A program made the position numbers and the translations under genes. The notes beneath the pieces are model-generated. The model saw only the letters and a program-made list of their open reading frames with translations. It searched no databases and was not told where the DNA came from. From Moniliella sp. 'wahieum' (Eukaryota), in the NCBI GenBank assembly GCA_003971905.1, contig RSEE01000046.1, positions 186,001-250,000 of the forward strand: 64,000 nt of DNA, given 5' to 3'. Positions 2,401-44,525 of the stretch are shown here, in pieces. Each line of letters begins with the position of its first letter. Position 1 is the stretch's first letter.

Positions 2401-3127
2401 CCCGCCTTTTCGGAGCCCCACCCGTTGTCAAGCCATGTTGGACAGGCAGCCCTACCTCGAGCCAACATATGCATTAGCGGAATCAGAGGATGAGGAGATT
2501 ACAATTGATGGCACGCCGCCGCCCAGAGTACCGACTCACCTCTGGTGCCCATGTTCGCCAAAACTCCCTTTCCTCCTATCTTGATCTTCTCGTCTGTATC
2601 CCCACAATAAATTAGTAACTTACCCCCTTCCACCTTCCACCCTCTGCCCCCAACCTCAGTCTGTGCAGCAGCAGGACTTTCCACACCCCTTGGCCACAAG
2701 AGCGCGCTAACCCCCCATTATGGTACATGCATCAAATGTGTCGAGTCTATGGCATTTCTGCGGTGTCCTCGCCCGCTGATCAGCTTGATCTGTGTGCTGT
2801 CGGCCAAGCTGACGGATCACGCTGATTGGTTCTTTTGGCTTTGCCATCATGTATGACACTTCAAGGCTCAAGACGAAAGCACTTCTTCTTGCTGTTTTCG
2901 CAGCGGATGGAAGCTGGATCAACCGTGACAGTGGGTGCGTCCTGCAGCGCAAAATACCAGGAAACGCGCACCAGAATTCGATAACAATGTATCGGGTAAC
3001 CCAGTCGACCAAGCTACACGAACAGTGCTGGCTTTTGTCCCGATCCCATAGTGCTGGCGAAGTAGTACGTTGCCAATCCAAAGGAATGGACATAACATGG
3101 GAATTATGCATCATCCCACAGGCAAAA

Positions 3128-3230
3128 CCATCCCATCCCATCCCATCCCATCCCATCCCATCCCATCCCATCCATCCCATCCCATCCCATCCCATCCCAT
3201 CCCATCCCATCCCATCCCATCCCATCCCAT
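3128..3230. repeat. (CCATC)n pentanucleotide microsatellite, ~20 units
   Basis: Directly visible tandem ccatc/cccat array. Confidence 0.95.
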
Positions 3231-4589
3231 GCCACCTTCCTCATTCTGACCCGCTCTTGCACCAGCCGCTTGGCCCTCACCACGTCGCTCTCCCCTACCA
3301 TTACCCCCATCTCAACGCTCGTCACGGTCATGGTCAAGATCGAGTTGCCCATGAGCAAAAGTACAACGTGGTGCTCTGTCTGACTGTCTCGTCCACGCTT
3401 GCGCTCGCCCGGTGGTAACGATGGTTCAACCTTGTATCAGGCGTCTCCAAAAGCTTGTGCCGGCCATGCCCAAACATGCCCCGCCATTTCCAGTCCTGTA
3501 CTTGCCATGCGCTTGTGCCCACCGTTTTTGAGCTTGTGCCCGCTATGAGCAAACGTTTGCCAACCACCTCCATGTTTGTGCTCGCCATCCCCAACCCTGT
3601 GCTCGCCGTCAAGCCTGTGGTCGTCATCCCCAAGCCTGCGCTCCCCATCAGGCCTGTGCTCGCCATCTTCCACATCAAGCATGTATACGAAAATAGTAAC
3701 GCATATCATCGTTCAGCCTATCTCTCCGCCCACTCGAGTCTATTGGGAACATGCACCACCGAAGCATCTGAGCACCTGTCATAGATGTTGAGGCGGACAA
3801 TGACTGTGACGGTGGTGGGTCTTTGAAGCGAACATAAGAACGACGACTGCCCCAGTTGATCCAGCGCATCAGAGTATGCACTTTGAGAGATGATCAACAG
3901 GCGTACCTCAGCAAGTATCAAAGGTATTCAAACAGAACAACAGCATGACTATCGGATGGTATCAATGTGATCATGTTGAATGCAATTGTCGGTACTGTTT
4001 AAGCAGCAAATGCACATTGTTGGGACATGCGAACTGGGAGTATACCAGCAACTTCTGTACATTTTTCGAGGCATCGTCTGACCAACGTTGGAGATGTTTG
4101 AGCTGGCAATCATGTGGCGCGTGACAGCTCTTCTCCAACGGTGTAACGACAAATCTTGCACTTGTTGGCAGGCTGCGGTGTATGACCGAATTGGTGAGAT
4201 GGTCACGACGGTGCTGTCACCAACTGTGGCACCTCAACCGTAGAGAAACAACAACGACTGTCATGGATATTTGAGCGCCTAACCAGGGCATCCGTGGGAC
4301 ATCTTTCGGCCGATCAAAAGTACGATTGTCGAAACGGGTGTAACGGACATGAACCAAATGCACTCTGAGGGAGGCACCAGAGAGGCAGGCCGCCTCGGCA
4401 ATACATTAACTACCAAGCGTGAGCGCTATGGCTCTCTCAGCGAGCAACAGAGAGCAGACCAGCTCGGCAGTACAGTGACTAACTAAGCGTTAGCACAAGG
4501 GACCTGGTCTCTCTCTGAGCGTTACTCGCCAAGGCGCTCTATTATACCTTCGCCCCCCATCTCCTCTCGTTGGTTCGATGGATCTATGG

Positions 4590-11923: not shown

Positions 11924-14900
11924 TTAATCTTCCTCTTCTTCCTCTTCGATCGGCACATCCGTAAAGGCTGGCGCAGCGACAGTACGCATCCTTGGGCCCG
12001 AGGGTACCGTGGCGTTGATTCCCCCAAGCGGGCCATGCGGGTGGCCCGTAGGAGGTGGGTGCGAGGCGACCGAGGCAAGATGATGAGTAACTGTCTCCAA
12101 CTGCGCCGCTACTCCATCTTCCGGTGGCGCGAGAGCTAGGGGCGCATGCACCATCATCCGACTAGCATACGGCGAGTCAGGCTTGCCGCGAGACTGCGTG
12201 GGGCGCCACCGGTTCCCCTCAGGTGGCACAAGCGGACGTAGCCCCGCAGCTTCCGGTCCATACCCAGGGAACGCATCCTCCTCCTCTTCCTCATCCACCC
12301 AGTCCTCGTCTTCGTCTTCTTCCGCTGCAAACACATCCCGCAACTTGGGCCGGAGCAGCGCCAGCAGCTCCTTTCTCTGTACCATCGAGGGAGACACACC
12401 CGAATCTACCCGTCCCGCCCAATCCGGGGGCAGTTTGCCCCAGCTCTGTAACCAAGTCGCGACTTCCTTGGGTGGTGGCGCTTCGTCCGACGCAGAGTCC
12501 CATCGACGGGGAGGTTTGAAAGAGGAACGTTTGCGGTGAGCAAAGAACTGTGATCGGAGCGGCCCTTCTTCCCCATCCAGGAAGGGTGATCGAGGAACAC
12601 GGAGTTCACTGACCCCATCCGAGTCCGCTAGGGAACGACGTCGCTGTGACCAGGTTCGACGGACTACAATAGTATGCGACTCGGTGGAGGAGCGCGACGA
12701 TGACGATGGCGTGGGGTGGACGTGGGCCTCGCATGGATCGGACAGATCTCGGCCGGGGACGTAACCGAAGAGATTGAGTCGACTCGGCCTAAAATACTGG
12801 ACGGACGCGAAGCGCTAGTACGGGCGCGCATGCGCGGTGTAGCAGTTCCCGCACCACTGGTCCAGTCCCCTGGACCCGGAGGCGCTGAGGAGCGGCTGGC
12901 CAGTGTGCTGCCACTCCGACTTTGGCGGCGCGTGCGCACCGTCCGCGCCGGGCGGGCATAGCTGACACTACCTTCACTGGTCCGGGTGAGGGCGGACGAC
13001 GCGCACTAGACTGTGAGGTGGTGGAGAGCCGGCGCGGGTTTCTTCGTGGCCGCACCGGGGTGCGCTGACGGCTGTTGCTCCGGGGTGCCAACGGTTCACC
13101 CGTACTAACGCTAAGATGGTCATCCCGCGGCAGATGGGTCAAACTGGATAGAGGGAAGCTAAGTGGGGTGTTGGGGTGGGGACGGTTTCTTGCGTTTGCG
13201 AAGTGGCATACTCAAACCTAGGCTAGGCTTGGAACTTGACCGTCTCTTGGTGATGGGGCTGACGCCTCAGATGGGCCTGGAACGAGAGAGGCGGAGGATG
13301 TCATCAGGAGCGGGAGACTCACTTCCCCGTTATGCGGGGAAGCTATCTTCTTCCCTCCGCCCGGCAGGACCGGCGGTTTTGGATCGGTAGTGCCAAGCCA
13401 AGTACGAACAGTGCTCAAACTGTTCAAGAACCGATTCTTATTTTTGCGCCCCTTCTTCCCATCCCGCATCTCAGCCGAGTCAGGACCAAACGCCCCGGAG
13501 CTGGAGCCGGGGTTGCCTGAGGGGAGCGATACAGAGCTGTCAGCCGGGTCGCGGGATGTTCCTGTCGGCTCCGGTTGAATGTGAAGGCGATCAGTCAGGT
13601 CGATGGGGGAGGCTGAACGGGAGGAGAGCGCCTGCCCAAGAGAAATGGTTGAAGTCGTTTGCTCCGTCTGCAATGTGGGTAGAGAGGGCCGCACCAGCAG
13701 AAGGTGGGGAGTGGTATGCGTCCGTTGATGGCCCCAACTTTCATATTCATCCCCTCGAGATGGCAATAGAGGTGCCGATAGGTTACGCTCCCCATCTGAC
13801 AGGCTGGGGTCTCTAGGGACATCGGCAGGCGAAGGTGAATAAAGCAATCGGTTCCCTTTTTGCGTCCAAGGAGACCCGGAGGAAACCTCCAAAGGCGGAC
13901 GGGTCGTAGGGGGTTGGGGCATATCGAATATTTCGCCCGGGGGGCACGCCCAGGGAATGCTGTGATCAGGCGGTTCCTTTGGTGGGGACGAACCGGGAGC
14001 GATAACGATTGCTGGAGGCGATTCCATACGGCGAGGTTCCGGGACGTCGGGAAGGGAAATGGGTTCCGTCTTTACGCTCGTCGGAGGCAGAGTGATTGAA
14101 GGCCCAGTGCTCTTGTGTTGTGGCCCAATATCCCGCCTTGGAAGAGAGAGAAGAAGGCGTTCCTCATTCTCTCTCTCCTCGGCGCGCGGGCAGCAGCAGC
14201 CACCAAATAGCACTGGCCGAATCACATGCATCCCGTCGGACTGAGCTGACGATGGAGCCCACGTCTAAGCCGAGCGTGGACATAGTGCTTAGAAGGTGTT
14301 GTTCAACTGGACGACTAAAGTGGGCACGGACACCTCTGGCGCTCTTGCTCTGTAGCAAAAGGAGCGCATGCCAGTCCGTCTCGTCATTTTCTGGGGGCAC
14401 GGTAAATGGGTCGGTGCTAATCGAGGGAAGCAGCGGTTCAATGGCGTGCATCAACGGGGAAGCAGGCAGACTTCTGTCTGTTAGTTTGGGCCAATGGGCG
14501 GGTGTGATATCAGCCTCATCCGAGGCAACATCAGTATCGACGGGGTCACCGGGGACCTCGTCCGGCGTAGCACCATCATCGACTGTGCAATCGCATCGTG
14601 GAACACGTCTGTGTCAGAACCAGAGTCATCCAGAATGCCCGGCGCTTCAGGAACGGGGGCCAAACCCAGAGCAAGGCCTGCGTGGTGGTCTGCGCCAATT
14701 TCTTCGATCGAAGGGGCAGTATACGAGTGGGCTCTACGGGGGAGACTGCGAATGCTGGCGTTTCGAGAAGTGGGTACCGCGAGTGGTGGCGGGGACGTGG
14801 TGGAAGGAACGGCGTCCATATTCATGTGAAACCAGGGGTGCTGGAGGATCTGGGGAATGGTAAGTCGTTTGGAAGGGTCGCGGACGAGGATGGCGCGCAG

Positions 14901-15780
14901 CAAGTCAGCGGCCTCTGAAGATGTTGTGATGTCAGCCGAGGTTAAAAGGAAGAGAGGGGCATAGTATAGCGTACCGGCGGAGACGTGTTGGGGCATATCG
15001 AACGAGCCGAGTAGGATCTTGGCGCGCATGATATCTTCACTATCGTCGTCAAACGGGAGGGAGCCAGTAAGAAGGGCATAGAGAATGACCCCGAGAGACC
15101 AGATGTCCACCTGGCGCCCACGGTACCGCTCGCCAAGGATCATCTCGGGGGCAGCATAACCGGTCGTGCCACAATACGTGTCGAGCAGCTCGTCGTCATC
15201 GAACTGGGACACAAAGCCAAGTCTGCAAGCTTGACGTTACACCGCTCGTCCAGTAGCACATTTTCCAGCTTGATGTCGCGGTGCACAATGCCCGCATCGT
15301 GCACGTACGCTACAGCCAAGCACAGCTGGCCAAGAAGGCGCCGCGCCTCGCGCTCCTCCAACCGGCCAGCGGCTGCTCCACCAGATAGTCGTATAGCCCG
15401 CCGGGGCACAGCTCACACACAAGCCAGATGCTGCCCTCTGTCCTCACAACCTCCAGCAGCTGCATCACGTGGCGGTGGCGCAGACGAGCATGCAGGTCCA
15501 CCTCACGCGCAAGCGCTGCCAACTCCTCGCCGCCGGTAGGCGCGCGGGATTTGTTTAACTGCGACGGCGCAGTGGGGAAGAAGAGAATGATGGGCCAAAC
15601 GGACGCGGCCAAAGGACCCTTCGCCAATGGTACGCCCCAGGCGGTAGTTGCCGAGAGCGCGAAGGCGGCGTGCGCCGAGAGCGCGGACACGGCGTGCATG
15701 CGCATGAGCAGCAGCGCCGTCGCCGTCGCTGCGGGGGCGGAGCTGCGCTGGCGACGGACTCGCCCGTTGTTCACACTCAT
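11924..15780 (-). CDS. Ser/Thr protein kinase, CAMK/CAMKL group (Ppk16/Kin1-like), with a long low-complexity C-terminus
   Basis: YRLGRTIGEGSFGRV, VAVKQI, HRDIKLENVLL, DTYCGTTGYAAPE, DIWSLGVILYALLTGSLPFD, RLTIPQILQHPWF. Intron at ~14919-14973. Acidic tail EDWVDEEEE...IEEEEEED* ends at 11924. Several frameshifts. Confidence 0.85.
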
Positions 15781-16847
15781 CGGCGCATCCAGCGGGACGC
15801 AAGGCCGGGCGAGAAAGTGGTGGCGGGGAGGAGGGGCACCCCGAATCAGTTGATTCTCCTGTGCGCAATCCAATCGAATCATTTCGACTGCGCACGAATT
15901 TGAGATGCGCTCACTTGCCACGCAAACGCCACCACAAATGCGCGCAGCAGCCGTGGCGCGGCGGACGACGCATACGCTTGCCGACCCGCTCGCCGCGTAC
16001 CACACCCGCGTTGCCGCCGGCCATCTCGCCCGCAACGGCGCTCAGATCCACGCCCTCGTCCTCCTCCGCCGCCTCGCCCGCACCCTCGCCGCCCAACACC
16101 AGCGCAATCCGCCGCCGACCCTAGTTCGTACCCAGACCCAGACCCACACCACACCCCCACCCCCGCCTCGTCTCCCGCCCCCACCAACCCATCACCAAGC
16201 CCTCGAACTCGAGAAATGGCTCGTGGCCTCGCCGCCACCTTCTCCACATGCTCCCCCCGGCGCGCTCCTGACGGGCTCCCTGGTGCGTAAGACCTGGTTG
16301 CCGACTGTTCCTCGCCTCCTCCCCCTGGCTTGGGCTTTCGACGGCACTACCATCACCTTTTACTCGAGATTTACGCAGTTGTCAATAGGGAAGCGGCACG
16401 AAGGGCCAAAGAGGCCCGCGCTGCCCGCACCGGGGCTCCAGCGGGTCCCATGGCACTACTTCATCGTGTTCGTCAGCTGGCCCAGCCGCACGCCAGCCGC
16501 CTTGCAAGTGTCTTCCGCCCTCCGGTCCACGACCGTGCCGTGGCCGCGGTCAAGCGCGCGAAGCAAGACAAGCTACAGTAGAAACGCAGGAAGTGGTGCG
16601 TGCGTCCCCTGCCACAGGGAGCGCCGCCTTGGCATCTGCCGCATTGGGCACGTCCACACTCGCCGAGTACGCCGCTGCCTGGCTGCTGGTATCGCAGGGC
16701 AAAGTGATGCTGGTGGATGAACTGCAGCTGCTTGATATCGCCTCGGCGGGCCTGCTGGCGCGAGTGTTGGCTGCATACTGGCGCCTCGGCGGGACGGTGG
16801 TGGGCACGTCCAACCGTGCGCCGCAGGAGTTGTATGCGCGGGCCAAC

Positions 16848-18047
16848 TGTTGGCCTAGGGAGCCGGACGGGCAGAAGGATGAGGAGAAGGTGATGGATTG
16901 GAGCCAGAGTTGGGTCTGGGTACAGAGGCATCTATATAGGAGGCTGGACTAGGCACAGGGACAGTGAGTCACACAGGAGAGAGTGCAGGGCACAGGGACA
17001 GTGACACGCAGGGACGTCAGCGTGGAAGCCGATGGAACCGAGGCGAACCTGGTCTACCGACTGGGAGCCAGAGGATCACAGTCAACACCCCCGCTGGCCA
17101 GGGAACCCGGAGACGTCGGTTGTGGATGAGCTCCTGCCAGTGGATGTAGAGAGGGGAGGACTTGAGTGGCAACCGGGACGAATGGCCTGGAGTTGTGCAT
17201 GGCCACACGACTGGCCTACACCCCGCTGTCCAGGATGACACCTGAACGAGCCGAGCGCTTGTGGTTGGTGTATTGTGCGACCGCCAGATGCTTGTAGAAG
17301 TCTTAGAAGTAAAAGTAGTAGGGGTTGCGCCCCGAACGATTTGGTGGGCAAAAGTAAAAAGCACCAGTTATAGGTGTAGTGAAAGAAAATTGGAAACTTG
17401 GAGTAAATGCGGTCCAAGGTCGTTTGGCATCAAAATTGGATGCGTTTGGTAGTTGTTTGGTTCCGCATGCCTGGTGCCAGTGGGGTCCATTGGGCATGGG
17501 AAATGAACGGGCGCTATGCGTCAACCGTCTTGATCTGTTTGGGTTCTCTTTGTTGTTGAAAAAGAGGAGTGGAAGAAGTTGGGTGACCACCCCCCCCATC
17601 CTTTCCCCAGGTGCCCCGGATGAATTGGCAATCCGGGGCGTGTAGCCGTGGGTGGGGCACTTGATGAGCAGCCACCCCCGCTTTCTGCGATTCGCCTGCG
17701 CCGTTTTGTCGTTGGAGGAATTTCGTCTCGTTGACGATACCCGACACGTTTTGTTCCGTCGTGTGTTGTCCCTAAAAATCATTGCCCCATCTGTGGGGGA
17801 CGAGTGTGCCGATTGTGGCGGTAGTATGCCGATTGTGGCGGTAGTATGCCGATTGTGGCGGTAAGGGAGTTGGGTCTGGGTACAGAGGCATCTATATAGG
17901 AGGCTGGACTAGGCACAGGGACAGTGAGTCACACAGGAGAGAGTGCAGGGCACAGGGACAGTGACACGCAGGGACGTCAGCGTGGAAGCCGATGGAACCG
18001 AGGCGAACCTGGTCTACCGACTGGGAGCCAGAGGATCACAGTCAACA
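16848..18047 (-). mobile_element. Non-autonomous LTR retroelement (TRIM-like), copy A, minus orientation, with a ~196-bp deletion removing the 5' LTR end and PBS
   Basis: 3' LTR at 16848-17087 (240 bp, TGTTG..CAACA termini). Internal region 17088-17866 is the reverse complement of copy B. Truncated 5' LTR at 17867-18047. Confidence 0.9.
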
Positions 18048-18270
18048 GAACCTTGTGGCCGTAGACGCCGATCGACATGGGTTCCCATTGCCGCCCTGGA
18101 GCAGCTCCTGAACACGGGTGTGGAAAGCGGGTAGATCGGATACAAAGTAGTTGCTGTTGTCAGCCAAGGGCCCAGACCGACGAAAGTCTTTACTACCTGC
18201 CATTGCGATTTGCGGGCAATGCAGTTCGAGCGCGTCGAGAAGGGCTGGAGCTGATTGCGCTGCACGTTGG
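18048..18270 (-). other. Inverted 223-bp internal segment of the AFG1 coding sequence
   Basis: The reverse complement starts CCAAC GTG CAG CGC and ends GGC CAC AAG GTTC. It joins ...ELYARA-N on the left to V-RIPHAC on the right. Confidence 0.93.
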
Positions 18271-19656
18271 TGTTGACTGTGATCCTCTGGCTCCCAGTCG
18301 GTAGACCAGGTTCGCCTCGGTTCCATCGGCTTCCACGCTGACGTCCCTGCGTGTCACTGTCCCTGTGCCCTGCACTCTCTCCTGTGTGACTCACTGTCCC
18401 TGTGCCTAGTCCAGCCTCCTATATAGATGCCTCTGTACCCAGACCCAACTCTGGCTCCAATCCATCACCTTCTCCTCATCCTTCTGCCCGTCCGGCTCCC
18501 TAGGCCAACAGAGCTACAATCTGATCCCCCCGGAAGGGAGCGCTCTTCAAGCAAGCCCACCCCCAAGCCTACAAGCCCAAGCTAAGCCGCCAAGCCCACA
18601 AGACACACCCGTCCTCCCGCCCAACAACACCACCGCCACAATCGGCACCTTACCGCCACAATCGCATACTACCGCCACAATCGGCATACTACCGCCACAA
18701 TCGGCACACTCGTCCCCCCAGATGGGGCAATGATTTTTAGGGACAACACACGACGGAACAAACGTGTCGGGTATCGTCAACGAGACGAAATTCCTCCAAC
18801 GACAAAACGGCGCAGGCGAATCGCAGAAAGCGGGGGTGGCTGCTCATCAGTGCCCCACCCACGGCTACACGCCCCGGATTGCCAATTCATCCGGGCACCT
18901 GGGGAAAGGATGGGGGGGGTGGTCACCCAACTTCTTCCACTCCTCTTTTTCAACAACAAAGAGAACCCAAACAGATCAAGACGGTTGACGCATAGCGCCC
19001 GTTCATTTCCCATGCCCAATGGACCCACTGGCACCAGGCATGCGGAACCAAACAACTACCAAACGCATCCAATTTTGATGCCAACGACCTTGGACCGCAT
19101 TTACTCCAAGTTTCCAATTTTCTTTCACTACACCTATAACTGGTGCTTTTTACTTTGCCCACCAAATCGCTTCGGGGCGCAACCCCTACTACTTTTACTT
19201 CTAAGACTTCTACAAGCATCTGGCGGTCGCACAATACACCAACCACAAGCGCTCGGCTCGTTCAGGTGTCATCCTGGACAGCGGGGGTGTAGGCCAGTCG
19301 TGTGGCCATGCACAACTCCAGGCCATTCGTCCCGGTTGCCACTCAAGTCCTCCCCTCTCTACATCCACTGGCAGGAGCTCATCCACAACCGATGTCTCCG
19401 GGTTCCCTGGCCAGCGGGGGTGTTGACTGTGATCCTCTGGCTCCCAGTCGGTAGACCAGGTTCGCCTCGGTTCCATCGGCTTCCACGCTGACGTCCCTGC
19501 GTGTCACTGTCCCTGTGCCCTGCACTCTCTCTGTGTGACTCACTGTCCTGTGCCTAGTCCAGCCTCCATATAGATGCCTCTGTACCCAGACCCAACTCTG
19601 GCTCCAATCCATCACCTTCTCCTCATCCTTCTGCCCGTCCGGCTCCCTAGGCAACA
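18271..19656 (+). mobile_element. Non-autonomous LTR retroelement (TRIM-like), copy B, structurally complete (~1.39 kb)
   Basis: 5' LTR at 18271-18510 and 3' LTR at 19421-19656 (TGTTG...CAACA, internal CTATATAG TATA-like box). Putative PBS at 18511-18524. G-run (AGCGGGGG) immediately before the 3' LTR. No recognisable gag/pol motifs. Confidence 0.92.
18632..18708 (+). repeat. 20-bp tandem repeat (ACCGCCACAATCGGCATACT) x~4 inside the LTR element; partial mirror copy at ~17806-17862
   Basis: Directly visible in both element copies. Confidence 0.9.
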
Positions 19657-20879
19657 GGTTCGGATCCCCCACGCGTGTCTTCCGTCCCAGGGGAAAGAAA
19701 GTATGGGAATGATATCCTTCGGAGCTCTCTGCGCTGATGAGCTTGCCGGGCAGATTATCTCTCTTTGTGCTCTACCTTCTCCATTTTGGCCATCAAGCAC
19801 GTTCCTCAACTCACGTTGGACGATAGTAAGCCTGGCGAACAAGGCGCACGCGATCAAACACGCAGATTCATCACTCTGATTGACGCTGCTTATGAGACGC
19901 GTACGCGTCTTCTCATCTCGGCTGACGTGCCAATTGACTCACTCTTCGGTTCACGCGGACCGACCACACACACTGAGCTCAACTCTCCTCAGCTTATCCA
20001 ACCGAAACGCTCAGCGAAGCGCGGCAGGACACGATGAAAACTTCCGTCCTAATGTGGGATGTATGACCGTGTGCAGGACCATCGTCTGAACCCTACTGCA
20101 TCTTCACTTCCAGAAAGCGGAGGCAAGCACTCTTCCCTTTCTCTAGCGAAGCGGAACAGTTTGCCACGGCCCGTGCCCTATCCCGGCTACACGAAATGGC
20201 CCGACCCACCTGGCCAACCGACCCATGGACGCCGCTTCCACCGGCTGTTCTGGCCCTCTGGGGAACTCGTGTCAACTGGTCCTCCGTCCCGCCCACCAGT
20301 GTGCTCCCAGAAAACTCGCAAGCGGCAACCAGGGAAGCTACTGGTCCGCTCCCTAGGATAGAAGAGCTACTGGAGGCGCCCGACGACCTCGCATCTACCG
20401 ACTATCAGTCCACCATCGTCAGGGCGCCCCCCACGCCATCCGCGCCCATCATATTTGGGGGGTGCGGGAGGACTGGGGCCGCGGGCCGGGCGCTGGGGCA
20501 AGGGCGCGGCTGTGTACGAAGCGAGTCACGAGGAGGCACAGGATCCGAACAAGTGACGCTCTAATGGATATTCTGTCAGCACTCGTTGAATGTAGGACGA
20601 GGTTTGGACAGAGGCATATTGGCCAAGTCCCAAGCTTGCCATTGCTTAATCAAGTGGCGGGTGTAGCAAAGCCTACCTAACCTTCACACAGTCCGTAATG
20701 ATAGAAGACCGTGTCTGCCTTTAATTTACTTGCACTCGATCAATAGCCAGTTGCCTCTCTGATCCTCCGGCCCCAGGGCCCGAACAACTCATCACTATCA
20801 TCAATGGGAGGGCATACTACTACCCAGTAGAATGTTGTCGCTGTGAGGAATGCATTGATACACAAAGAACGGGATGGAA

Positions 20880-22523
20880 TCAGAAGTGAGCCAGAAAGTT
20901 TGTACTTGTCCCCGGGTGTACCTGGGGCTTCTTTTGTGGCTTTTCATCCTCAGGCTCAGCCTTACGCTTGCTCTTACCCTTGGCCTTCTTTGGGATAGCA
21001 GGCTCCTCGATGACCTTCTGCTCAACCTCCTCCTCCTCCTCCTCCCCTCGGACGCGCTCTCGGGGTCCACCTCTTCCCAACCCTCCGACTCGTCATCGGT
21101 CAACTCTGCCCTCTTCTTCATCCGACCCATCCGGGTCAGCAAACTTGACCGCCTTTTTACCCTCTTTAGCGGGTCGCTCCGAAGGCGGGACAAAGAACAT
21201 GTACTCCCACTTGAGGGTACGGGGGTCAACGGGGCCTGGAAGCAGGCGGAGCTGACGGGGGGCATACTGCGCCTTCCATTCCGAGATGGGGAGGACGGCC
21301 TCATCCAGTCCGGCCAAGGTGGTGGGCAAGCGGTCGCCCAAGCTCGCGGCCTGAGCACTGGCGTCAGACCGCGAGAGCGGGGGCATGGCATAGTACATCA
21401 TCTTTTCATGACACCAATCAAAGATGAGTTTACGCATGATGGGTGTGATGGACGGCGCGCCACCGCGAGCAAGGTGTCCAATGGAACGGGCGAGATGAAC
21501 ACAGAGCTCATCAAACTCAGTCGCGGTGAGATCTGCACCCGAACGTGTCTCGGCACCAGCAGCAAAAGCCGGGAGACGGTAGAGAAGCTGCAAGTCCAAG
21601 ATGCGAGCGACGCGGGTGATGAGTGCTCGTGCTAGGGCTTCGATCGTCTTGGATTTTTGCATGGGGCCCTTGTTGCGTAGCAAAGCACGCAGCATCGCCG
21701 CCTCGTCATCCTTTCCTGGATCCTCGGAAGAAATGAGATGGGCCGTGTCGTAGACTGTGACAGGTGCGCCATCCCTCGCTTGAGCCAACATCCCCAGCGC
21801 AGAAGCCAAAGAGGAGCGGCCGGCATTTTCCATGCCACAGACTGCAACGCGGTTCCCGTCCTTGTTGCCCCAGGCTCGTATCTGCTCCAAGATTGGCGCG
21901 AGACCCAAAGGCTGCTCGCCTAGAGACACGGGAAATACTGGTGCCGAAAAACGGTTATGGAGGACAGAGGCCCAGGCATTAACCACCTCTCGTGGCACGA
22001 GATCGGTGCGTGTCAGGACATAGGCGAAATGCTTGCCCTTGGTCTCGACGTTCTGTTGCAGCGACGGCGTGACCCACGACAGGGGATCACGTGCATCAAT
22101 CGCAACAAGCACTGAAGCCACTTGGGCGTCATCAAGCAGCTCCGCAAGAGTGGCGCGGTACACGGGGGCCTGGAGTAGAAGAGCTTGTGCGGCATCCACA
22201 AACTCCTCCTCCTCCTCTGCCTCGTCCTCGCTCTCCTCAGTGGCAGCAGCACCCTTGAGTGCGCGCGCCTCCCTCGCACGCTCCTTGGCCTGAATCTTAG
22301 CGGCCTCTTCCGCGACGCGCTTTTGGCGGATCTCTTCGAGGAGCTGTTCCTTGAACGGATACGAGTTGGGGATGCCGGGGTCCTTCTTGATGCGACTGGT
22401 CCACTGCGGGTTCTTCTTGGCGTCGCGCCGAGCCTTGCGGTGGTGCTCGGCAACACGCTTCTTGATCTTGACGCGCTGCTTGGTTGACTGGCGCTTCGAA
22501 GGGGTAGGCTTCAGCTTGACCAT
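20880..22523 (-). CDS. NUG1: Nuclear circularly permuted GTPase of the NUG1/Grn1/GNL3 family (60S biogenesis)
   Basis: N-terminal GN3L_Grn1 signature SKRQSTKQRVKIKKRVAEHHRKARRDAKK...KKDPGIPNSYPFKEQLLEEI. Also DARDPL, a G1-like GMENAGRSS, ARSIGHLARGGAP and an acidic/basic tail. One frameshift near 21095. Confidence 0.85.
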
Positions 22524-22663
22524 GGTATGGGTGGGGCGGAGGTGGTAAGCAGGGCGAAGCAATGCCCAGTATCCGCAGTGTGGATGTGGATAGCGAAAAT
22601 TTGGCGGAACGCCCGCAGGCCCTATTCCGCCCTGCGAGCTATTGCACCGACAGACTGGGAGCA

Positions 22664-22767
22664 TCACGTGACATATGGTGCCAGTCGCGTTCTCCAGCGT
22701 GTCACTTGAGGATGCAAGATCCCATATATATTGCGGAACCCTAATAAATTTCTGCTGCGGAACCCTA
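22664..22767. promoter_or_regulatory. Candidate Cbf1-type E-box and paired Tbf1/telo-box-like sites in the divergent NUG1-RACK1 promoter
   Basis: TCACGTGA at 22664-22671. TGCGGAACCCTA direct repeat at 22732-22743 and 22756-22767. Confidence 0.4.
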
Positions 22768-22940
22768 TTGACCACCTGGTCGCGGTTTCCCGCTGGGCTC
22801 GTCGTCGTTGCCGCCGACACAGATCTTCCACCTCACAACCGATCTTGTGAGTATTCTGCAGAGACCGTGACTCGTGTCGCTCCATTCGGTTCTGTTAACT
22901 CTTCCTCCTCCTTCGTTTCTCTGGCCTTCAGCATCCAAAC

Positions 22941-23864
22941 ATGAGCGAGTCGCTGCAATTCAAGGGCAGCCTCACGGGGCACCAAGGGGGTCACGGCGCT
23001 GGCCACGTCGAGCGAGAACCCTGACTTGCTCGTTTCGTCGTCGCGCGACAAGCATGTGATTGTGTGGAACCTCAAGCGGGGTGAGGACGACTTGGGATAC
23101 CCCAAGAAGATCCTTCACGGCCACAACCACTTCGTCTCGGACGTTGTCCTGTCGTCCGACGGCCAGTTTGCCCTGTCTTCGTCGTGGGACAAGACCCTGC
23201 GTCTGTGGGACCTCAACACCGGCAACACTGTCCACCGCTTTGTCGGCCACCAGGCTGATGTCCTCTCGGTCTCCTTCTCGGCTGACAACCGCCAGATCGT
23301 GTCGGCTTCGCGTGACAAGACGATCAAGCTGTGGAACACGCTTGGTGAGTGCAAGTTCAACCTCACCGACCACGGTCACACGGAGTGGGTGAGCACTGTT
23401 AAGTTCTCCCCAACCCGCAGCTCCCTCATTGTCTCGGGTGGCTGGGACAAGGCTGTCAAGGTGTGGGACCTGTCGCAGATGCGCCTCAAGGCCAACCACT
23501 TTGGTCACTCGGGCTACGTCAACACGGTCACCATCTCCCGATGGCTCGCTTTGCGCGTCCGGCGGAAAGGAGGGCACCGTCATGCTCTGGGAGCTGTCTG
23601 TCGACAAGCACCTCTACTCGCTCGAGGCCGGTGACAATGTCAACGCCCTTGTCTTCTCGCCTAACCGCTACTGGCTCTGCGCTGCCACCTCGTCCTGCAT
23701 TAAGATCTTTGACCTTGAATCGCAGTCCATTGTCGACCCTTGTCCCTGAGATTGAGGGCAACGGCAAGGCTCCCGAGGCGCTCTCGCTCGCCTGGTCGGC
23801 CGACGGCCAGACCCTCTTTGCCGGCTACTCGGACAACGAGATCCGCATCTTCTCTGTCCTCTAA
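22941..23864 (+). CDS. ASC1: RACK1/Asc1/Cpc2/Gib2 WD40 40S-ribosome-associated protein
   Basis: [14 protein letters not shown]...SSSRDK...[32 protein letters not shown]...[12 protein letters not shown]...[12 protein letters not shown]...[18 protein letters not shown]. Several 1-bp frameshifts. Probable 5'UTR intron at 22847-22931. Confidence 0.96.
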
Positions 23865-24220: not shown

Positions 24221-24733
24221 TTAGTATTGACCACTGCAATGGTGTAGCAAAGCATACGTACCCGTACTGCCCGGAGAACCCGCCCTGAGTGGCGGGGTAT
24301 TGGAAGCCCTGGGGGTAGGGTTGGGCAAACGCGGTAGGCGGAGAGGCATACGGAACCTGCCCATTGACACGTCAGCAAAGCCCTGTTGTTGGTAGCCGGT
24401 GAAGCCCTGGAGGGCGGGCGCAGGGTAGGGGTTGCCGTACCCTCCGCCGTAACCAAACGAGGGGGGGTGATCACGCGGGCGCGAGTTGGCCATGTTGACA
24501 CGGATCGTACGGCCGTCGAGCTGGGTGTCGTTGAGCGTCTGGATGGCCGCGTCCGCCTCTTCCTGAGTGGTGTAGGTAACGAAACCAAACCCGCGCGACC
24601 GCCCGGTCTCGCGGTCCTTCATCACAATGTAATCCAACAGCGCTCCCTGGGTCGCAAAGGGAGAAAAGGCGTGAGCCAGACCCTCGTCGGTCGTGTTCCA
24701 GCTGAGGTTGCCGACGTAGATTTTGGCCGCCAT
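24221..24733 (-). CDS. Single-RRM glycine-rich RNA-binding protein (GRP/CIRBP-like)
   Basis: RNP2 IYVGNL, RNP1 RGFGFVTY, LDGRTIRVNMA and a Gly/Tyr tail. A probable 5'UTR intron (24871-24734) ends right at the ATG. 3' end uncertain. Confidence 0.88.
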   Translation of the reverse strand: MAAKIYVGNLSWNTTDEGLAHAFSPFATQGALLDYIVMKDRETGRSRGFGFVTYTTQEEADAAIQTLNDTQLDGRTIRVNMANSRPRDHPPSFGYGGGYGNPYPAPALQGFTGYQQQGFADVSMGRFRMPLRLPRLPNPTPRASNTPPLRAGSPGSTGTYALLHHCSGQY

Positions 24734-25357
24734 CTGCGGATCAAGGGGGAGGGACGAGAGCAACCGCCACAGAATCACGCCCGGGCAAGTCAGTACATGC
24801 GCATGCGTTACTGTCTTCAGAGCATCCAGTACGGACACAGCCAGCCAAGGGCAAGGCAGCGGGGGGCTTACGGGGAGAATTGCTGCCGTTCGGGGGTGAC
24901 AGGGGTGGAGGTCGAGGAGCAGGCGGGCCCACTGACGCCACGCTCCAAGCAACGGGGCCAGCTAACGAGGCCCGCGGAATGAAAATCTGATGCGTATGTT
25001 CCGCTGTGACTTTGGACAAGCTTCAGCCTGACCTCAGGCTGCGGGCTTGAATGGCTTGAAGCTTGAAGCTTGAAGCTTGAAGCTTGAGAGAGGCGCTGAG
25101 GCGCTGAGGCTTTTCCAGGCTACCCCGTCTGGCAGGACTAGCTGGACTACTGCCTGGGGTGCATGTGCTAGTGAAGCTAGTGGCTAGGGCTAGCGACTGG
25201 CTGCACTCGGTAGTGACTAGTGACTAGTCTAGTTCGCCTGGGGCCAGAGGACCGAGTGAGGTGACTGACTCCCAGTATACTACAGCAGACGATCGCCCGC
25301 CGGTTGCGTGTCGGTTGATGTGGATCTGAATTACGGGCCGAGGTTAGTTGTCGCGCC

Positions 25358-37463: not shown

Positions 37464-40400
37464 TCAGGCCAGGTACCCGTTCGTCTTGAGCCAGTCCTCC
37501 ACGTCCCCCCGCGCGCGCGCCAGCCAGCCTGCGCGCGCACGCACGCTCTCCAGCCCCTGCGACAGCGCCATGGCGTAGCGCCTTACGTCCTTGGTCCCAA
37601 AGAACGCCTCCACCGCCTCGGCGTCCTGCTCCGTCGCCAGCCCATCGAACGACGACTGGATCAGCCGGCCCAGGCCAAAGTTGCCTGCGAACCGCTCGGC
37701 CAGCACGTCGTACCTTGCCTGCGTGCATGTCCACAGCGCACGCCGCGATTTCGGTCTGATCGACATCCCCCGGAAGTAGTGCAGAAAGTCCTGCTCCTTC
37801 ACCTCCCCCGAGTACAGGAACGCCACTGTCCGCTCCAGCAGCAAGGCGTCCTCCGTCGCACACATCCCGTACATGCTTGCCACCTTGTGCGCCGGCGTCG
37901 CCGGCGTACGGTAGATCCCCAGCAACGCCTCGTACTCCTTCTCGCCACCGTACTTGACTGCCGTCATGTACACCGGCACAAGCAGATCCGACGGGATCGT
38001 ATCCTTGCCCTCGAGCATGGCCGCGTACAACTTTTGGATCTCTTGGACCGTCCATGCGTCGCCAGCACTCGCTGCACCACCATCGCCTGTGTTTCGTCCT
38101 CGCGTCAGTTCTCTGCATCCTCCCACATCCAACAGGGAAGGGGCAAGGGGGGATTGCGGGATCCAGATCCAACGTACCAATTCCCGTAGCTGCTGCACGT
38201 CTACCGAATCGTCTGCTTTGCCCTCAAACCCGAGCGCGTGCGCCTTGGGCCCCCAGAACTCGGCCTGGAACTTCTTGATTGCCTTCTGGACCGGCTCGGG
38301 CTCCTCATACCACACCGAGCTCAGGTCCGAGAAGACCTTGAGCGCAGCCGAGTTGACCAAGAAGGATGCCTCCCGCTCCATCTTCTTGAGCAGCGTCAAC
38401 GTTCCACTGGTCGTGGCGTACCCGGCCCGGGCGAGCGTATGCGCATCGTTCACTAGCCCCACCCGGTCTTCCAACGAAACACCGACTCGGCCCGTGCTGC
38501 TTCTTCGCCCAGCAGAGCCAGACGCCCAGGCGTATACGCAACACGGTACACACCCCACCGTATCTGCGTTTCAACTTCCACGGCACACTCGACGCCCCCT
38601 TGAGCATGATCTTTGTCTCTCGCTCTTCCTTCAGCACAAGACTAGTGTCCACCCGTGGCGCTCCGTCGCTGCCCACCGTCTTGAGGTTGAGCGGCACGTA
38701 CCACAACGTTCTCGTCCTCCTCGGGTTTCACGTCGCCCGTAGCGAGGAACCGGTTCTGGCGCACCGTGATCTCATCCCCTCCTCGGTCACCGTCAGAACG
38801 GGGAAACCTTGCTTCAACACCCACTTGCTCATGATCGCTGCAATGTCCAGCCCGGACGACTGGGCAATACCTTCCCACAAGTCCTCTGGATTCGCGTTCC
38901 CATACAAGTGCTTCTTGAGGTACAACGAGGTGCCCTGGAGGAACACTTGTTCCCCGACCATCTTCATCAGCATGCGCAGAACCGATGCGCCCTTGGAGTA
39001 CGAAATCGCATCGAAAATCTCATTGATCGCAGCTTCCACGTTCTCCCCCTTGAGAGGGACCTGGATCGGGTGCGAAGACCGCTTGGCATCCAACTCGAGT
39101 GCACGCGTTAGGTGCGCCACAATGAATTCTCGGTTGGACGTCCACTCGGGCCAGCAGCGGTCTAGGATGATCACTTCCCCCGCCAGCGAGGCCCAGGCCT
39201 CATTCAGATACAGACTACCCATCCGTCAGTGTCAGACTAGCTACCCTTTCTTGGGCATCAAGAGAGGGGAAGAAGGGGGGGGGGAGAAGCAGGTTAGGGG
39301 GGGGGGGAGAACCGGTGGGGTACGTACCTCTCCCAAGAAGCCATGGTGGTGATATTGCCAAACCATTGGTGAGCGCATTCGTGGCTTTGCACGCTGGCCG
39401 CGAGCTTGCGTGCGCTCAGTCCGCCCTTTTGTTCGTCGACGAGGTAAATCGAGGTGCGACCAGTGATCAGTCCCCAGTTCTCCATCGCGCCCGCATCAAA
39501 GTCACTCGCAACGAGCGTGTCGAGCTTGGGCAAAGGGTAGGGAATGTCAAACACCTTTTCGTACTCGGGCATAACGCGCGTGGTTACCTCGAGTGCAAAG
39601 TGCGCTTGGTGGATGTACTCTGGCGTCGTGTACACTTTCACCTCTCACTGTCTTCCCTGTCAGAGGGGAGGTGTAGCTCGAGCCAAGGTGGAGGAAGGCT
39701 CCATTGGCAAAGGCTACCAGATACGTCGACATGAGCGGCGTCACGTCAAAGCTCGTTACCGTCCATTCGGCCTTATTGTTGTTGTTATTGTCCACCTTTG
39801 AAGTAGCTTCGGGGAGGGGGAGTACCTTGTCCTCCTCTAGCTCCAGCTCCGTGGCGCGCAAAAGGTCCCGCATCTCGCTCTCTGACACGCTCGTCGTCTT
39901 GATCACGGGCATGTTGCCTAGTGCCACGGTCTGGGCACGATGGATGAGACGAACAGCAAACGTCGCTTTCAACGCTGGCTCATCAAATGAGGGAAACACC
40001 TTGCGCGCTGACGTGGGCTCAATTGCGTCAAGGCATAAAACCCTTTTTCCCCTTGTGCTCCCAGCTGGACCGGTAGTACCCCCCCCGACCCGCCATCGAC
40101 TTATCAATCTCCCCGCCAAACGCAATGGTCAAGCGCACCTTGGTGCCTGGTGGAACAGCATGGGGAAGACGTAGCGTGTGCCACGTTCGTGCTCCGTGTC
40201 AACTCTCCGCGAACAAGGATAGAGCCCGCAACAGCTGCAGCATCACTACTGGTCAACCCATCGCTCTCCACTAGCACCTTGCTCACGACGAGCTTGCTCC
40301 CCACATTCAGCGTTAGCTCCGCGTCTCCACCAACGTCTCCACAGCTCACGCCACCACACCCCGTAATGTCAGCTGCCCAGTCCGACTTGACAAGCAGCTC

Positions 40401-42718: not shown

Positions 42719-44525
42719 ATGCGTGTGCCAGCTTGGCAGTTGCCTTCCGTGCAGCGCAAATACGATGCTGACGTTCAATCGGTTGCTTCCCCCCCTCGGA
42801 ACTCAAGGAAGCGAGCCAGGTCCCCCGCGCAACCGCTGCCGCCTTCCAAGCGCCCACCGCGGCTGGGGCGGGACATTGAGCTCGCGTATTTCCCGGACGA
42901 AGAGACGCGCGAGGCGGAGCCGGGCAGGAGGAACGAGAGGAGCAGCATGTCGGTTCTTCCGAGGACAAAGAAGCACAGGATGGAGAAGAATCCCAGCACC
43001 AACAGCACAACTACAGCAACAAGGAATGGAAGAAGAAGGAGAAAACAACGAAGACGAGGAAGCGTACTGGCTTGGTCTTCCCAAGTGGGTCCGGCCGCAC
43101 GTGCTGATCCGAAAAGAGATATGGAGGAGGAGATGCACAAGTACTGGTATGCGCGCTACACTCTCTTTGCTCACTTTGACCAGGGCTACGTCTTGGACCG
43201 CGAAAGTTGGTACAGCATCACACCCGAGGGCGTGGCCAAGCACATTGCGCGTCGGATGGCGACGATCCTCCAGGCCCAGCGGGGTACACGGGACGCTACC
43301 ACCACGCGCACGAGCGGTGCGGGCGGCGGGACTCAAGGGACCCAACCCACTGCAGGACCCGGGTGGGTGTTGGATGCGTTTGTGGGGCGGGAGGCAACGT
43401 GGTAAGCTTCGCTAGACACTTTGATCATGTGGTAGGCATCGATGTCGATCCTGTCAAGGTCGAGCTGGCTCGACACAATGCTCGTGTGGCTGGTGTGGAG
43501 GATAAGGTGACGATCGTTTGTGCCGATGTGGTCCAGTGGGCAGCCACGTATGCAAGGTTACGTGCGTCTGCGGATGCCAAGCAGCAGCCCAACAACCAGG
43601 AGGAGAAGGAGAGGAGAAGGAGAAGGAGAAGGAGAAGGAGAAGAGAAGGAAAGGAGAAGGAGAAGAGAAGGAGAAGGAGAAGGAGAAGGAGAAGGAGAGG
43701 AGAAGGAGAAGGAGAAGGAGAAGAAGGAATAGGAAAAGGTGGAAACAGAGGCCGATTGGGCCACTTGTCTCAATGGTCGTTTGATGCCATCTTCCTCTCC
43801 CGCCTTGGTGGGGTGGGGTACCGCACCAACCCGCCCCCCACGCCCCAGAAACCAGCGGGGAGGACACAGCGCCAGCCGAAGCAGCTAGTACAGCCTTCCA
43901 TGCCGAAGATGCCGCTGCCCGCCGTCGCCACCACCTCTGGTGCGACGAGCAAGCCGAGGCCAAGACCAAGACACCGGCGTGGGCACAGGCAGAGGCCAAG
44001 GTCGCCGAGCTGGAACACGCGCTGGCCGCAGTGCCGGGCGGGACGGAGACCAAGGCCAAACGCAAGCGCCTGCGGTGGAGGCTGAACCAGGCGCGCACCG
44101 AGCTGCTGGGGCTGTATGATGGGGCGCTGGCGGGGGCGAGGCGGGGCGAGGCGGGAGGCACAGCCAGAGCCAGAGGAGGCGGTGGCGGTGCCAGAGACCG
44201 AGCCAGAGACGGAGAGTGTCTACCGGCTGAGCCGGCTGGCGCCGCTGAGCGGGACGGGGCTGGTGGAGATGTGCTGGCGCAGCTGGGGTCGGCGAACGTG
44301 GCGCTGTTCCTGCCGCGCAACACGGGGTGGGAGGATGTGGGGCAGCTGGGCGCGGCGGCGCACCGGCTGGGCGGGCGGGCGGAGGTGCTGGTGGAGCGCG
44401 AGGTGAATGGGCGCAAGCTGGTCGCTGTCACGTGCTACCTGGGGGGCTGGTGGGGTAAACACCAAGAAGGACGAATGAGTATTGAATGTGCGAATGGAAT
44501 CAAGTGCAAGCAGCGGCGCACGTGA
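42719..44525 (+). CDS. TGS1: Trimethylguanosine synthase
   Basis: KYWYARYTLFAHFDQG...LDRESWYSITPEGVAKHIA, VLDAF(V)GAGGN, IDVDPVKVELARHNARVAGV, FDAIFLS(PPW)GG, and ALFLPRN. Frameshifted; start uncertain. Confidence 0.88.
43601..43735 (+). repeat. (GAGAAG)n purine microsatellite within the TGS1 coding region
   Basis: About 135 bp of near-pure A/G hexamer repeats. Confidence 0.93.

Follow-up and report, generated by a model that had tools for sequence, protein, structure and literature searches.

The coding sequence of an AFG1-like ATPase gene of fungal type is interrupted here by two almost identical retrotransposon copies in opposite orientation, and the short piece of gene that lies between them, the spacer, is carried on the opposite strand to the rest of the gene. 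The locus thereby raises the question of how a gene comes to be broken in this way: by separate insertions that were followed by an inversion, by a single event in which two copies were joined crosswise to two nearby sites, or through an assembly that reports only one of two possible orientations of the spacer. The question is addressed below within one window, which is the whole stretch of DNA that was analysed (64,000 nucleotides), by means of the elements themselves, the 5-mers that flank them and the reading frame of the gene.

Anatomy of the locus

Read directly, the order of the whole structure is CCAAC, element A, GAACC, the remainder of the spacer, GTTGG, element B and GGTTC; the elements stand head-to-head, with insertion sites 213 bp apart (table 1). 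Reverse complementation turns CCAAC into GTTGG and GGTTC into GAACC, and the structure contains two 5-bp target-site duplications (TSDs), CCAAC and GGTTC, each present twice and in exchanged arrangement. The chance of both 5-mer matches is approximately (1/1024)^2. A sequence-only reading of the stretch had placed both elements, the spacer and all four 5-mers at the coordinates given in table 1 and had described the TSD pairs as swapped; direct reading of the sequence confirms each of these positions and bears out the exchange. An inverted duplication or fold-back artefact was considered and is ruled out, since the spacer occurs only once and both 5-mers occur exactly twice.

Table 1. Features of the interrupted AFG1-like gene, with positions counted from the first nucleotide of the window.
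Feature	Position	Strand	Evidence or remark
AFG1-like ATPase gene, 5′ part (left flank), ends ...ELYARAN	15908-16847	+	Pfam, tblastn
Target-site duplication X, copy 1, CCAAC	16843-16847	.	read directly; reverse complement GTTGG at 18266-18270
Element A, non-coding LTR element, 1200 bp	16848-18047	-	direct reading, repeat and alignment comparison
Element A 3′ LTR, 240 bp	16848-17087	-	
Element A internal part	17088-17866	-	
Element A 5′ LTR, truncated, 181 bp, adjoining spacer	17867-18047	-	
Inverted AFG1 segment, 223 bp, including GAACC (18048-52) and GTTGG (18266-70)	18048-18270	-	AFG1-like representatives on minus strand
Element B, non-coding LTR element, 1386 bp	18271-19656	+	direct reading, repeat and alignment comparison
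Element B 5′ LTR, 240 bp	18271-18510	+	
Element B internal part	18511-19420	+	
Element B 3′ LTR, outer, 236 bp in the assembly, four one-base gaps	19421-19656	+	
Target-site duplication Y copy, GGTTC	19657-19661	.	read directly; reverse complement GAACC at 18048-18052
AFG1-like ATPase gene, 3′ part (right flank), begins (V)RIPHAC	19657-20600	+	Pfam, tblastn

On the plus strand element A reads TGTTGGCC...GTCAACA and is thus in minus orientation, and element B reads TGTTGAC...GGCAACA. The long terminal repeats (LTRs) of both are direct repeats of 240 bp with TG..CA ends, TGTTGAC...GGCCAACA, which are bounded by the terminal inverted repeats TGTTG/CAACA. The LTR length of 240 bp that had been proposed from the sequence holds with two corrections: the outer LTR of element B has 236 bp in the assembly on account of four one-base gaps, and the spacer-side LTR of element A measures only 181 bp, owing to an overlooked 196-bp deletion relative to element B, in which A lost the end of its 5′ LTR together with adjacent internal sequence. 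Three of the LTRs are identical over their common length; only the outer LTR of element B departs from them, by its four gaps. A repeat finder recovers perfect inverted arms on either side of the spacer (17867-18047 and 18271-18451; 181 nt, 100% complementary, 223 nt apart) and a second arm pair, 16847-17089 and 18269-18511, of 243 nt at 100%. Over 1021 aligned bases the elements are approximately 98.5% identical, gaps included, and they differ by one substitution, 14 one-base indels and the single 196-bp deletion.

Judged by these sequence features, A and B are copies of one small, non-autonomous, TRIM-like LTR retrotransposon family. Among 12 open reading frame translations from both elements there was no match to any Pfam family (E up to 0.1-1). 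The motif TATATAGA lies at LTR position 150 of element B, and a G-run, AGCGGGGG, stands directly before both 3′ LTRs, where the final 15 bases include no more than 9 purines. With respect to priming, no TGG start follows the 5′ LTR of B, the corresponding region being deleted in A, and a search for self-priming of the Tf1 kind found no stretch of at least 8 nt in the sequence after the LTR that is complementary to the LTR itself. As far as the excerpted descriptions of TRIMs and other non-autonomous LTR elements extend, the resemblance lies in short length and in two LTRs around a non-coding interior, such elements presumably being moved by the proteins of an autonomous partner; in contrast to TRIMs, neither an autonomous partner nor a primer-binding site nor a further copy besides A and B was identified here in the 64-kb window. 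With its 1386 bp and LTRs of 240 bp, the element is among the largest to which the term TRIM is usually applied. Scans of metagenomes with a 31-nt pattern from the LTR start and with a 32-nt pattern from the spacer each returned 0 matches.

The AFG1-like gene and its inverted segment

The gene is recognized on both sides of the elements by the Pfam family AFG1_ATPase (PF03969). In the left flank (16389-16847, plus strand) the match covers profile positions 122-173 with E = 1.7e-8, and in the right flank (19741-20034, plus strand) positions 276-333 with E = 3e-8; with 34.3 and 33.4 bits, respectively, the two matches exceed the curated cut-off of 27. High-scoring segment pairs (HSPs) of AFG1-like representatives in tblastn extend from 15908 to 16841 on the left and from 19750 to approximately 20600 on the right, in plus frames throughout. 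Homologues for 19741-20034 were obtained by exhaustive search; a word-index search with the same segment, directed at longer proteins, scored nothing. The approximately 100 profile positions that are missing between the flanks are accounted for by the spacer, once flipped, together with the first part of the right flank.

The strand of the spacer was determined by running 150 AFG1-like representatives against 18000-18320 in tblastn with relaxed settings. The best 25 of 390 HSPs all lie on the minus strand, for example residues 361-420 of P0001 at 18239..18078 and residues 282-303 of P0014 at 18108..18043. Pfam finds no match in the three frames of the spacer; the coding pieces are short and frame-broken. 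When the locus is restored by script, that is, when the two elements are taken out together with one of the two copies of either 5-mer and the spacer is re-inverted, in-frame HSPs span both junctions in all six of the representatives printed, with the readings ELYARAN|VQRNQ and VYGHKV|RIPHAC. The spacer is colinear with the AFG1 flanks only once it has been flipped. In-frame continuity across the restored junctions indicates that neither 5-mer was duplicated before insertion, the state expected for two true TSDs. The restoration of AFG1 that had been proposed from the sequence thus holds in frame over both junctions, but two frameshifts persist inside the re-inverted spacer.

These frameshifts have to be read against the quality of the assembly. 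Both the neighbouring kinase gene and AFG1 contain frameshifts that leave no space for introns, and 11 of the 14 one-base indels between A and B fall in homopolymer runs. We attribute the extra AFG1 frameshifts and most of the A/B differences to many one-base indel errors in the assembly rather than to decay. The idea that AFG1 is an old, decayed pseudogene was rejected on the same grounds, given frameshifts of the same kind in the kinase gene and a ratio of 14 indels to one substitution. Homopolymer-type deletion errors, together with an N-free 64-kb contig that passes through two repeats of 1.2-1.4 kb, suggest that the assembly was built from long reads.

Routes to the exchanged arrangement

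The best reading of the locus, and in our judgement a likely one, is that two separate insertions in opposite orientation came first and that the inverted copies then recombined and thereby flipped the spacer. Two copies of one family would have entered the coding region of the AFG1-like ATPase separately, each integration duplicating 5 bp of its own target, CCAAC on the left and GGTTC on the right. The two 1.2-1.4-kb copies would then have stood as the arms of a long inverted repeat, with only a very short spacer in between, and an exchange between the arms, by crossover or by a template switch during replication, would have inverted everything between the exchange points. The outcome would be a spacer on the opposite strand and elements that each carry one 5-mer from either site, with the 196-bp deletion in element A as a separate event. 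The layout of the locus, the exchange of the 5-mers, the colinearity of AFG1 after flipping and the close resemblance of A and B are observed; we infer the order of events, the independence of the insertions and the recombination step. Of the two routes that the sequence-only reading had put forward, opposite insertions with subsequent recombination fits everything seen. Replicative intramolecular transposition, as performed by some bacterial elements, was also considered and is ruled out, since LTR elements, here with a TSD at each of the two sites, move via cDNA.

According to the excerpted account of Galileo inversion 2z3 of Drosophila buzzatii (PMC2775673), an inversion that arose through ectopic recombination of two transposon copies is diagnosed by their opposite orientation and by exchanged TSDs, and both features are found here, A being in minus and B in plus orientation. 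As that excerpt describes 2z3, two copies of one family likewise stand in opposite orientation at both breakpoints, the TSDs are exchanged, and the target sequences are single where the elements are lacking. Unlike 2z3, in which a cut-and-paste transposon inverted a chromosome segment, the present case involves LTR retrotransposons and a 223-bp piece within one gene. The excerpt also relates that chimeric copies excluded hybrid element insertion for 2z3; A and B, unlike the Galileo copies, carry no informative markers from which chimerism could be read, their LTRs being alike apart from one-base gaps that look like assembly errors.

A second point of comparison is the yeast fragile site FS2, an inverted pair of Ty1 elements approximately 280 bp apart and a known recombination hotspot (PMC3778018, in excerpt). 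The two loci have in common an inverted pair of LTR retrotransposons, a spacer of a few hundred base pairs and a hairpin-prone inverted repeat, the hotspot itself being a feature of FS2 in that excerpt; unlike the 6-kb autonomous Ty1, the copies here are non-coding and 1.2-1.4 kb long. In the predicted fold, the central 585 nt form a perfect hairpin of 181 bp at -295.7 kcal/mol, against -98.2 ± 4.5 kcal/mol for shuffled sequences, and such a hairpin-prone inverted repeat may be an unstable spot in the genome.

What speaks against two independent insertions is their closeness: sites 213 bp apart in a gene-rich and otherwise repeat-free 64-kb window look unlikely under random insertion. No other repeat family was found in the window, and a search for markers of an integration hotspot returned 0 tRNA genes and 0 Rfam families at the gathering score. 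The sequence-only reading had leaned towards concerted integration, with the closeness of the sites as its one ground. The argument is weak, given that inverted Ty1 pairs at a comparable distance are known from the excerpted FS2 report (PMC3778018). A second insertion would also be tolerable, because the gene was already broken and no further cost was incurred. The closeness has in addition to be weighed against the origin of the case, which was picked out of very many windows.

In the concerted alternative, two cDNAs, for instance from one particle, would have had their ends paired crosswise and been joined at two nearby sites in one event; we consider this highly improbable. One complex would hold cDNA 1 by its right end and cDNA 2 by its left end, a second complex would hold the remaining ends, and the tethered complexes would cut two near sites with the usual 5-bp stagger, which would yield an inverted spacer and exchanged 5-mers directly. 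Such an event would be to retrotransposons what hybrid element insertion is to DNA transposons; the latter process, according to the excerpt of PMC2775673, produces the same TSD pattern and an inversion between inverted copies in a single event. There, however, transposase cuts the ends of DNA transposons in the chromosome, whereas LTR elements insert as free cDNA, and a hybrid-type event would therefore need two cDNAs paired crosswise. The concerted event would give the exact sequence observed, each site having one element end of either kind, left and right, and a duplication of 5 bp, and it would account for the closeness of the sites without a hotspot. Near-identical copies also match the prediction for hybrid insertion, unlike the chimeric copies described in the excerpted Galileo account (PMC2775673), but near-identity is equally expected from two recent insertions of an active family, and nothing at the locus favours the concerted event. 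At least one more event would still be needed for the 196-bp deletion and the single substitution present in one copy only. Flipping between close inverted repeats is frequent, and the exchanged state accordingly requires no special origin; since the concerted and the ordinary routes share their end product, the locus cannot back the former over the latter. A literature search found no report of two-donor concerted integration as a cause of inversions in retrotransposons, and we know of no in vivo case in which two retrotransposon cDNAs integrated crosswise.

The remaining alternative concerns the spacer alone. Its orientation may be a choice made by the assembly, or one of two coexisting isomers, so that the real genome would have matched TSDs or a flipping mixture; this we regard as very unlikely. 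The arms beside the spacer share 181 bp without a difference and approximately 1.2 kb with few differences, and inverting the spacer changes none of the four junction sequences, because the same LTR start bounds the spacer on both sides. The spacer is therefore tied to a flank only by reads that exceed one whole element, in an assembly that the indel excess and the frameshifts described above mark as error-prone. Against this, the long reads to which the assembly points would cover the whole 2.8-kb structure, and the arms can be told apart by the 196-bp deletion. A misoriented or flip-flopping spacer would alter only the last step of the preferred reading, and the double insertion would stand.

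Consequences for the gene and the element family

The broader form of the concerted proposal is that small non-coding LTR elements are packaged several per particle, that their cDNA ends are paired crosswise and that two tethered complexes strike sites a few hundred base pairs apart. Although we give this little credence, it would have consequences if true: such events would either flip the spacer or remove it, in the latter case with a single copy between unmatched 5-mers as the result, and they would be a new way of producing small inversions and deletions in one step. The locus would gain weight in this respect only if pairs across the genome exceeded the expectation for independent insertions, an excess that would speak for two cDNAs integrating as a pair. 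With two insertions and a subsequent inversion as the preferred origin, the locus flags a recently active non-autonomous LTR family in this genome, and on a small scale it cleanly illustrates a textbook process, in which a gene is destroyed by two retrotransposon insertions and is then scrambled by recombination between them.

Two LTR elements in the AFG1 gene

Two LTR elements, A and B, lie in opposite orientation within a gene for an AFG1-like ATPase and enclose a short piece of that gene, the spacer (see table). Coordinates were obtained by direct reading of positions 16500-20000, and those proposed in the sequence-only reading for elements, spacer and 5-mers agree with it throughout; the bases at the ends of element A on the plus strand place it in minus orientation. 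The exchange of 5-mers claimed there was likewise verified: reverse-complementing CCAAC gives GTTGG, and reverse-complementing GGTTC gives GAACC. The chance of both matches occurring at fixed places is about one in a million. A repeat finder returned perfect inverted arms of 181 nt (17867-18047 and 18271-18451, 223 nt apart) and of 243 nt (16847-17089 and 18269-18511).

Features of the AFG1 locus and of the neighbouring genes
Feature	Position	Strand	Remarks
Protein kinase gene adjoining AFG1	14484-16041	minus	two frameshifts in catalytic domain, near 15370-15376 and 15176-15230
5-mer left of element A	16843-16847		CCAAC, read directly
Element A, 1200 bp	16848-18047	minus	plus strand starts TGTTGGCC, ends GTCAACA
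A outer (3') LTR	16848-17087	minus	full
A inner (5') LTR	17867-18047	minus	stops at LTR position 181
Spacer between A and B, 223 bp	18048-18270	minus	AFG1 sequence
5-mer, spacer left end	18048-18052		GAACC, read directly
5-mer, spacer right end	18266-18270		GTTGG, read directly
Element B, 1386 bp	18271-19656	plus	TGTTGAC...GGCAACA
B 5' LTR	18271-18510	plus	
B internal part	18511-19420	plus	
B 3' LTR	19421-19656	plus	
5-mer right of element B	19657-19661		GGTTC, read directly
GNL3L/Grn1 GTPase ORF	21096-22832	minus	
WD40 ORF	22945-23631	plus	
RRM ORF	24224-24961	minus	
Peptidase M1/ERAP1_C ORF	37467-40128	minus	
Cap guanine-N2 methyltransferase ORF	43180-44082	plus	
Endonuclease/exonuclease/phosphatase family ORF	49191-49871	plus	

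Both elements have 240-bp direct terminal repeats that start with TGTTG and end in CAACA, with TATATAGA at LTR position 150 and a G-run, AGCGGGGG, immediately 5' of both 3' LTRs. Element B is complete. Alignment of A with B opens a 196-column gap in A that covers the remainder of the 5' LTR and 137 bp beyond it, where a primer-binding site would be expected. The LTR length of 240 bp put forward earlier holds for the B 5' LTR and the A outer LTR; the truncation of the A inner LTR had been missed. After the B 5' LTR, neither a TGG-type primer-binding site nor an adjacent self-complement to the LTR of at least 8 nt was found. None of 12 ORF translations from A and B matched Pfam. A and B are thus, by sequence, TRIM-like LTR retrotransposons, small and without coding capacity, and they would have to rely on a partner element located outside the window.

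The first position lost in the A deletion (17860-17870, against 18452-18647 in B) is LTR position 182, some 25 nt past the motif at LTR 150-157 and near a plausible U3/R border. The deletion extends to the edge of the first 20-bp internal repeat unit, its 196-bp junction shows no microhomology, and it may have arisen during reverse transcription or after insertion. The tandem units of this repeat, with core ACCGCCACAATCGGCA, number four in B (18629-18710) and three in A (17803-17863). At 16841-16855, the target flank on the left, GGCCAAC, is identical to the LTR terminus (..GGCCAAC-A), and flank and element end together form a 15-nt near-palindrome, GGCCAAC-T-GTTGGCC; this may be coincidental or may reflect a slight preference for targets resembling the LTR end.

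The surroundings are gene-rich, with no repeat nest. A blastn search of B against the whole window matched A and B only (7/7 HSPs inside 16847-19657), all 13 inverted repeat pairs in the window belong to A and B, and a window-wide repeat search found no other dispersed family. Direct repeats elsewhere in the window comprise one (CCATC)n microsatellite at 3108-3257 and one 9-bp-period tandem array at 45251-45695 (about 21 overlapping 110-nt matches). Metagenome scans with the LTR-start pattern and with the spacer pattern gave no matches.

Orientation of the spacer

AFG1_ATPase (PF03969) was matched on the plus strand by the left flank (16389-16847; profile 122-173, E 1.7e-8, 34.3 bits) and the right flank (19741-20034; profile 276-333, E 3e-8, 33.4 bits), both above the Pfam cut-off of 27 bits; the other nine of 11 translations searched gave no AFG1 match, including the three spacer frames, which are short and frame-broken. 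An exhaustive homologue search with 16650-16847 as query returned 213 relatives at E <=0.001. In tblastn, the 12 relatives shown of 30 run matched the flanks exclusively on plus frames, and none of the 30 matched elsewhere in the window. A relaxed tblastn of all 150 listed relatives on 18000-18320 gave 390 HSPs (251 minus, 139 plus); every one of the best 25 (E 1e-8 to 1e-4) lies on the minus strand, and P0014 residues 282-303, for example, align to 18108..18043 (minus). Residues 288-350, 361-420 and 461-518 of P0001 align in that order to left flank, spacer (18239..18078, minus) and right flank, so the gene is colinear only with the spacer flipped.

A locus was restored by script: A and B were taken out, together with one copy each of the two 5-mers, and the spacer was re-inverted. 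In-frame HSPs then span both junctions in 6/6 relatives shown (for example, P0010 at 16620..18239 and P0008 at 18096..19771), bearing out the earlier claim that re-inversion restores AFG1, along with its junction readings ELYARAN/VQRNQ and VYGHKV/RIPHAC. Since the junctions are restored in frame, each 5-mer was single before insertion, and CCAAC and GGTTC are thus two genuine target-site duplications (TSDs).

Origin of the inversion

The structure probably arose by two insertions followed by recombination between the inverted copies. The starting order would have been left flank, CCAAC, minus element, CCAAC, spacer, GGTTC, plus element, GGTTC and right flank, from which a crossover or replication template switch at any point between the copies would give exactly the present sequence. 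PMC2775673 names three hallmarks of an inversion that arose by ectopic recombination between copies of a transposon: the copies lie in opposite orientation, their TSDs are exchanged and, if markers are available, they are chimeric. The pair shows the first two, and this route, the first offered by the sequence-only reading, matches that signature. As a recombination substrate the pair is extreme, with near-identical arms of about 1.2 kb around the spacer, and folding of the central 585 nt gives a perfect 181-bp hairpin (-295.7 kcal/mol vs -98.2 +/- 4.5 in shuffles). PMC3778018 describes yeast FS2, an inverted Ty1 pair about 280 bp apart, as a break and recombination hotspot. With two inverted insertions so close, a flipped spacer would be expected about half the time.

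Crosswise joining of two cDNAs to two nearby cut sites in one event, favoured for testing by the sequence-only reading, would yield an end product identical base for base, in which every site has a left element end, a right one and a 5-bp duplication. In DNA transposons its counterpart would be hybrid element insertion, which, according to PMC2775673, mimics ectopic recombination but leaves identical rather than chimeric copies; A and B lack markers, so this test is silent here. The lean towards this route came from site closeness, which, together with the lack of a hotspot marker (tRNA gene, Rfam family or repeat nest) in the window, is its sole argument. This argument is weakened by chance: by our own estimate, N recent copies spread over G bases of genome should give about N²d/G pairs within d bases (some 0.1 pair if N is 100, d is 250 bp and G is 20 Mb), and any site preference raises the figure. 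A second insertion into an already dead gene also escapes counter-selection, and the case was selected from very many scanned windows. Nothing relevant turned up in a literature search for retrotransposon inversions produced by concerted integration from two donors, and we regard this explanation as very unlikely. It is also very unlikely that the contig has the spacer orientation wrong or shows just one of two forms that coexist; either orientation gives identical junction sequences, and it takes reads exceeding the length of one element to discriminate.

Leaving the deletion aside, the alignment of A with B shows a single substitution against 14 one-base indels (12 bases absent from B, 2 from A), 11 of the indels in runs of at least 2 identical bases; only four one-base gaps set the B 3' LTR apart from the remaining three LTRs. 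The ratio of indels to substitutions is unlike a natural mutation spectrum and resembles uncorrected long-read consensus. In the adjoining kinase gene, consecutive Pkinase profile positions 91/92 fall at 15376 and 15370 in different frames, and positions 142-156 are covered twice around 15176-15221, with space for an intron at neither site, which suggests that one-base indel errors run through the whole assembly. Given both observations, the extra AFG1 frameshifts (two within the spacer, one near 19750-19771, others upstream) are best read as assembly errors and not gene decay.

The structure is a neat yet ordinary case of a known process, and its elements belong to a new non-autonomous LTR element family that has apparently been active recently.
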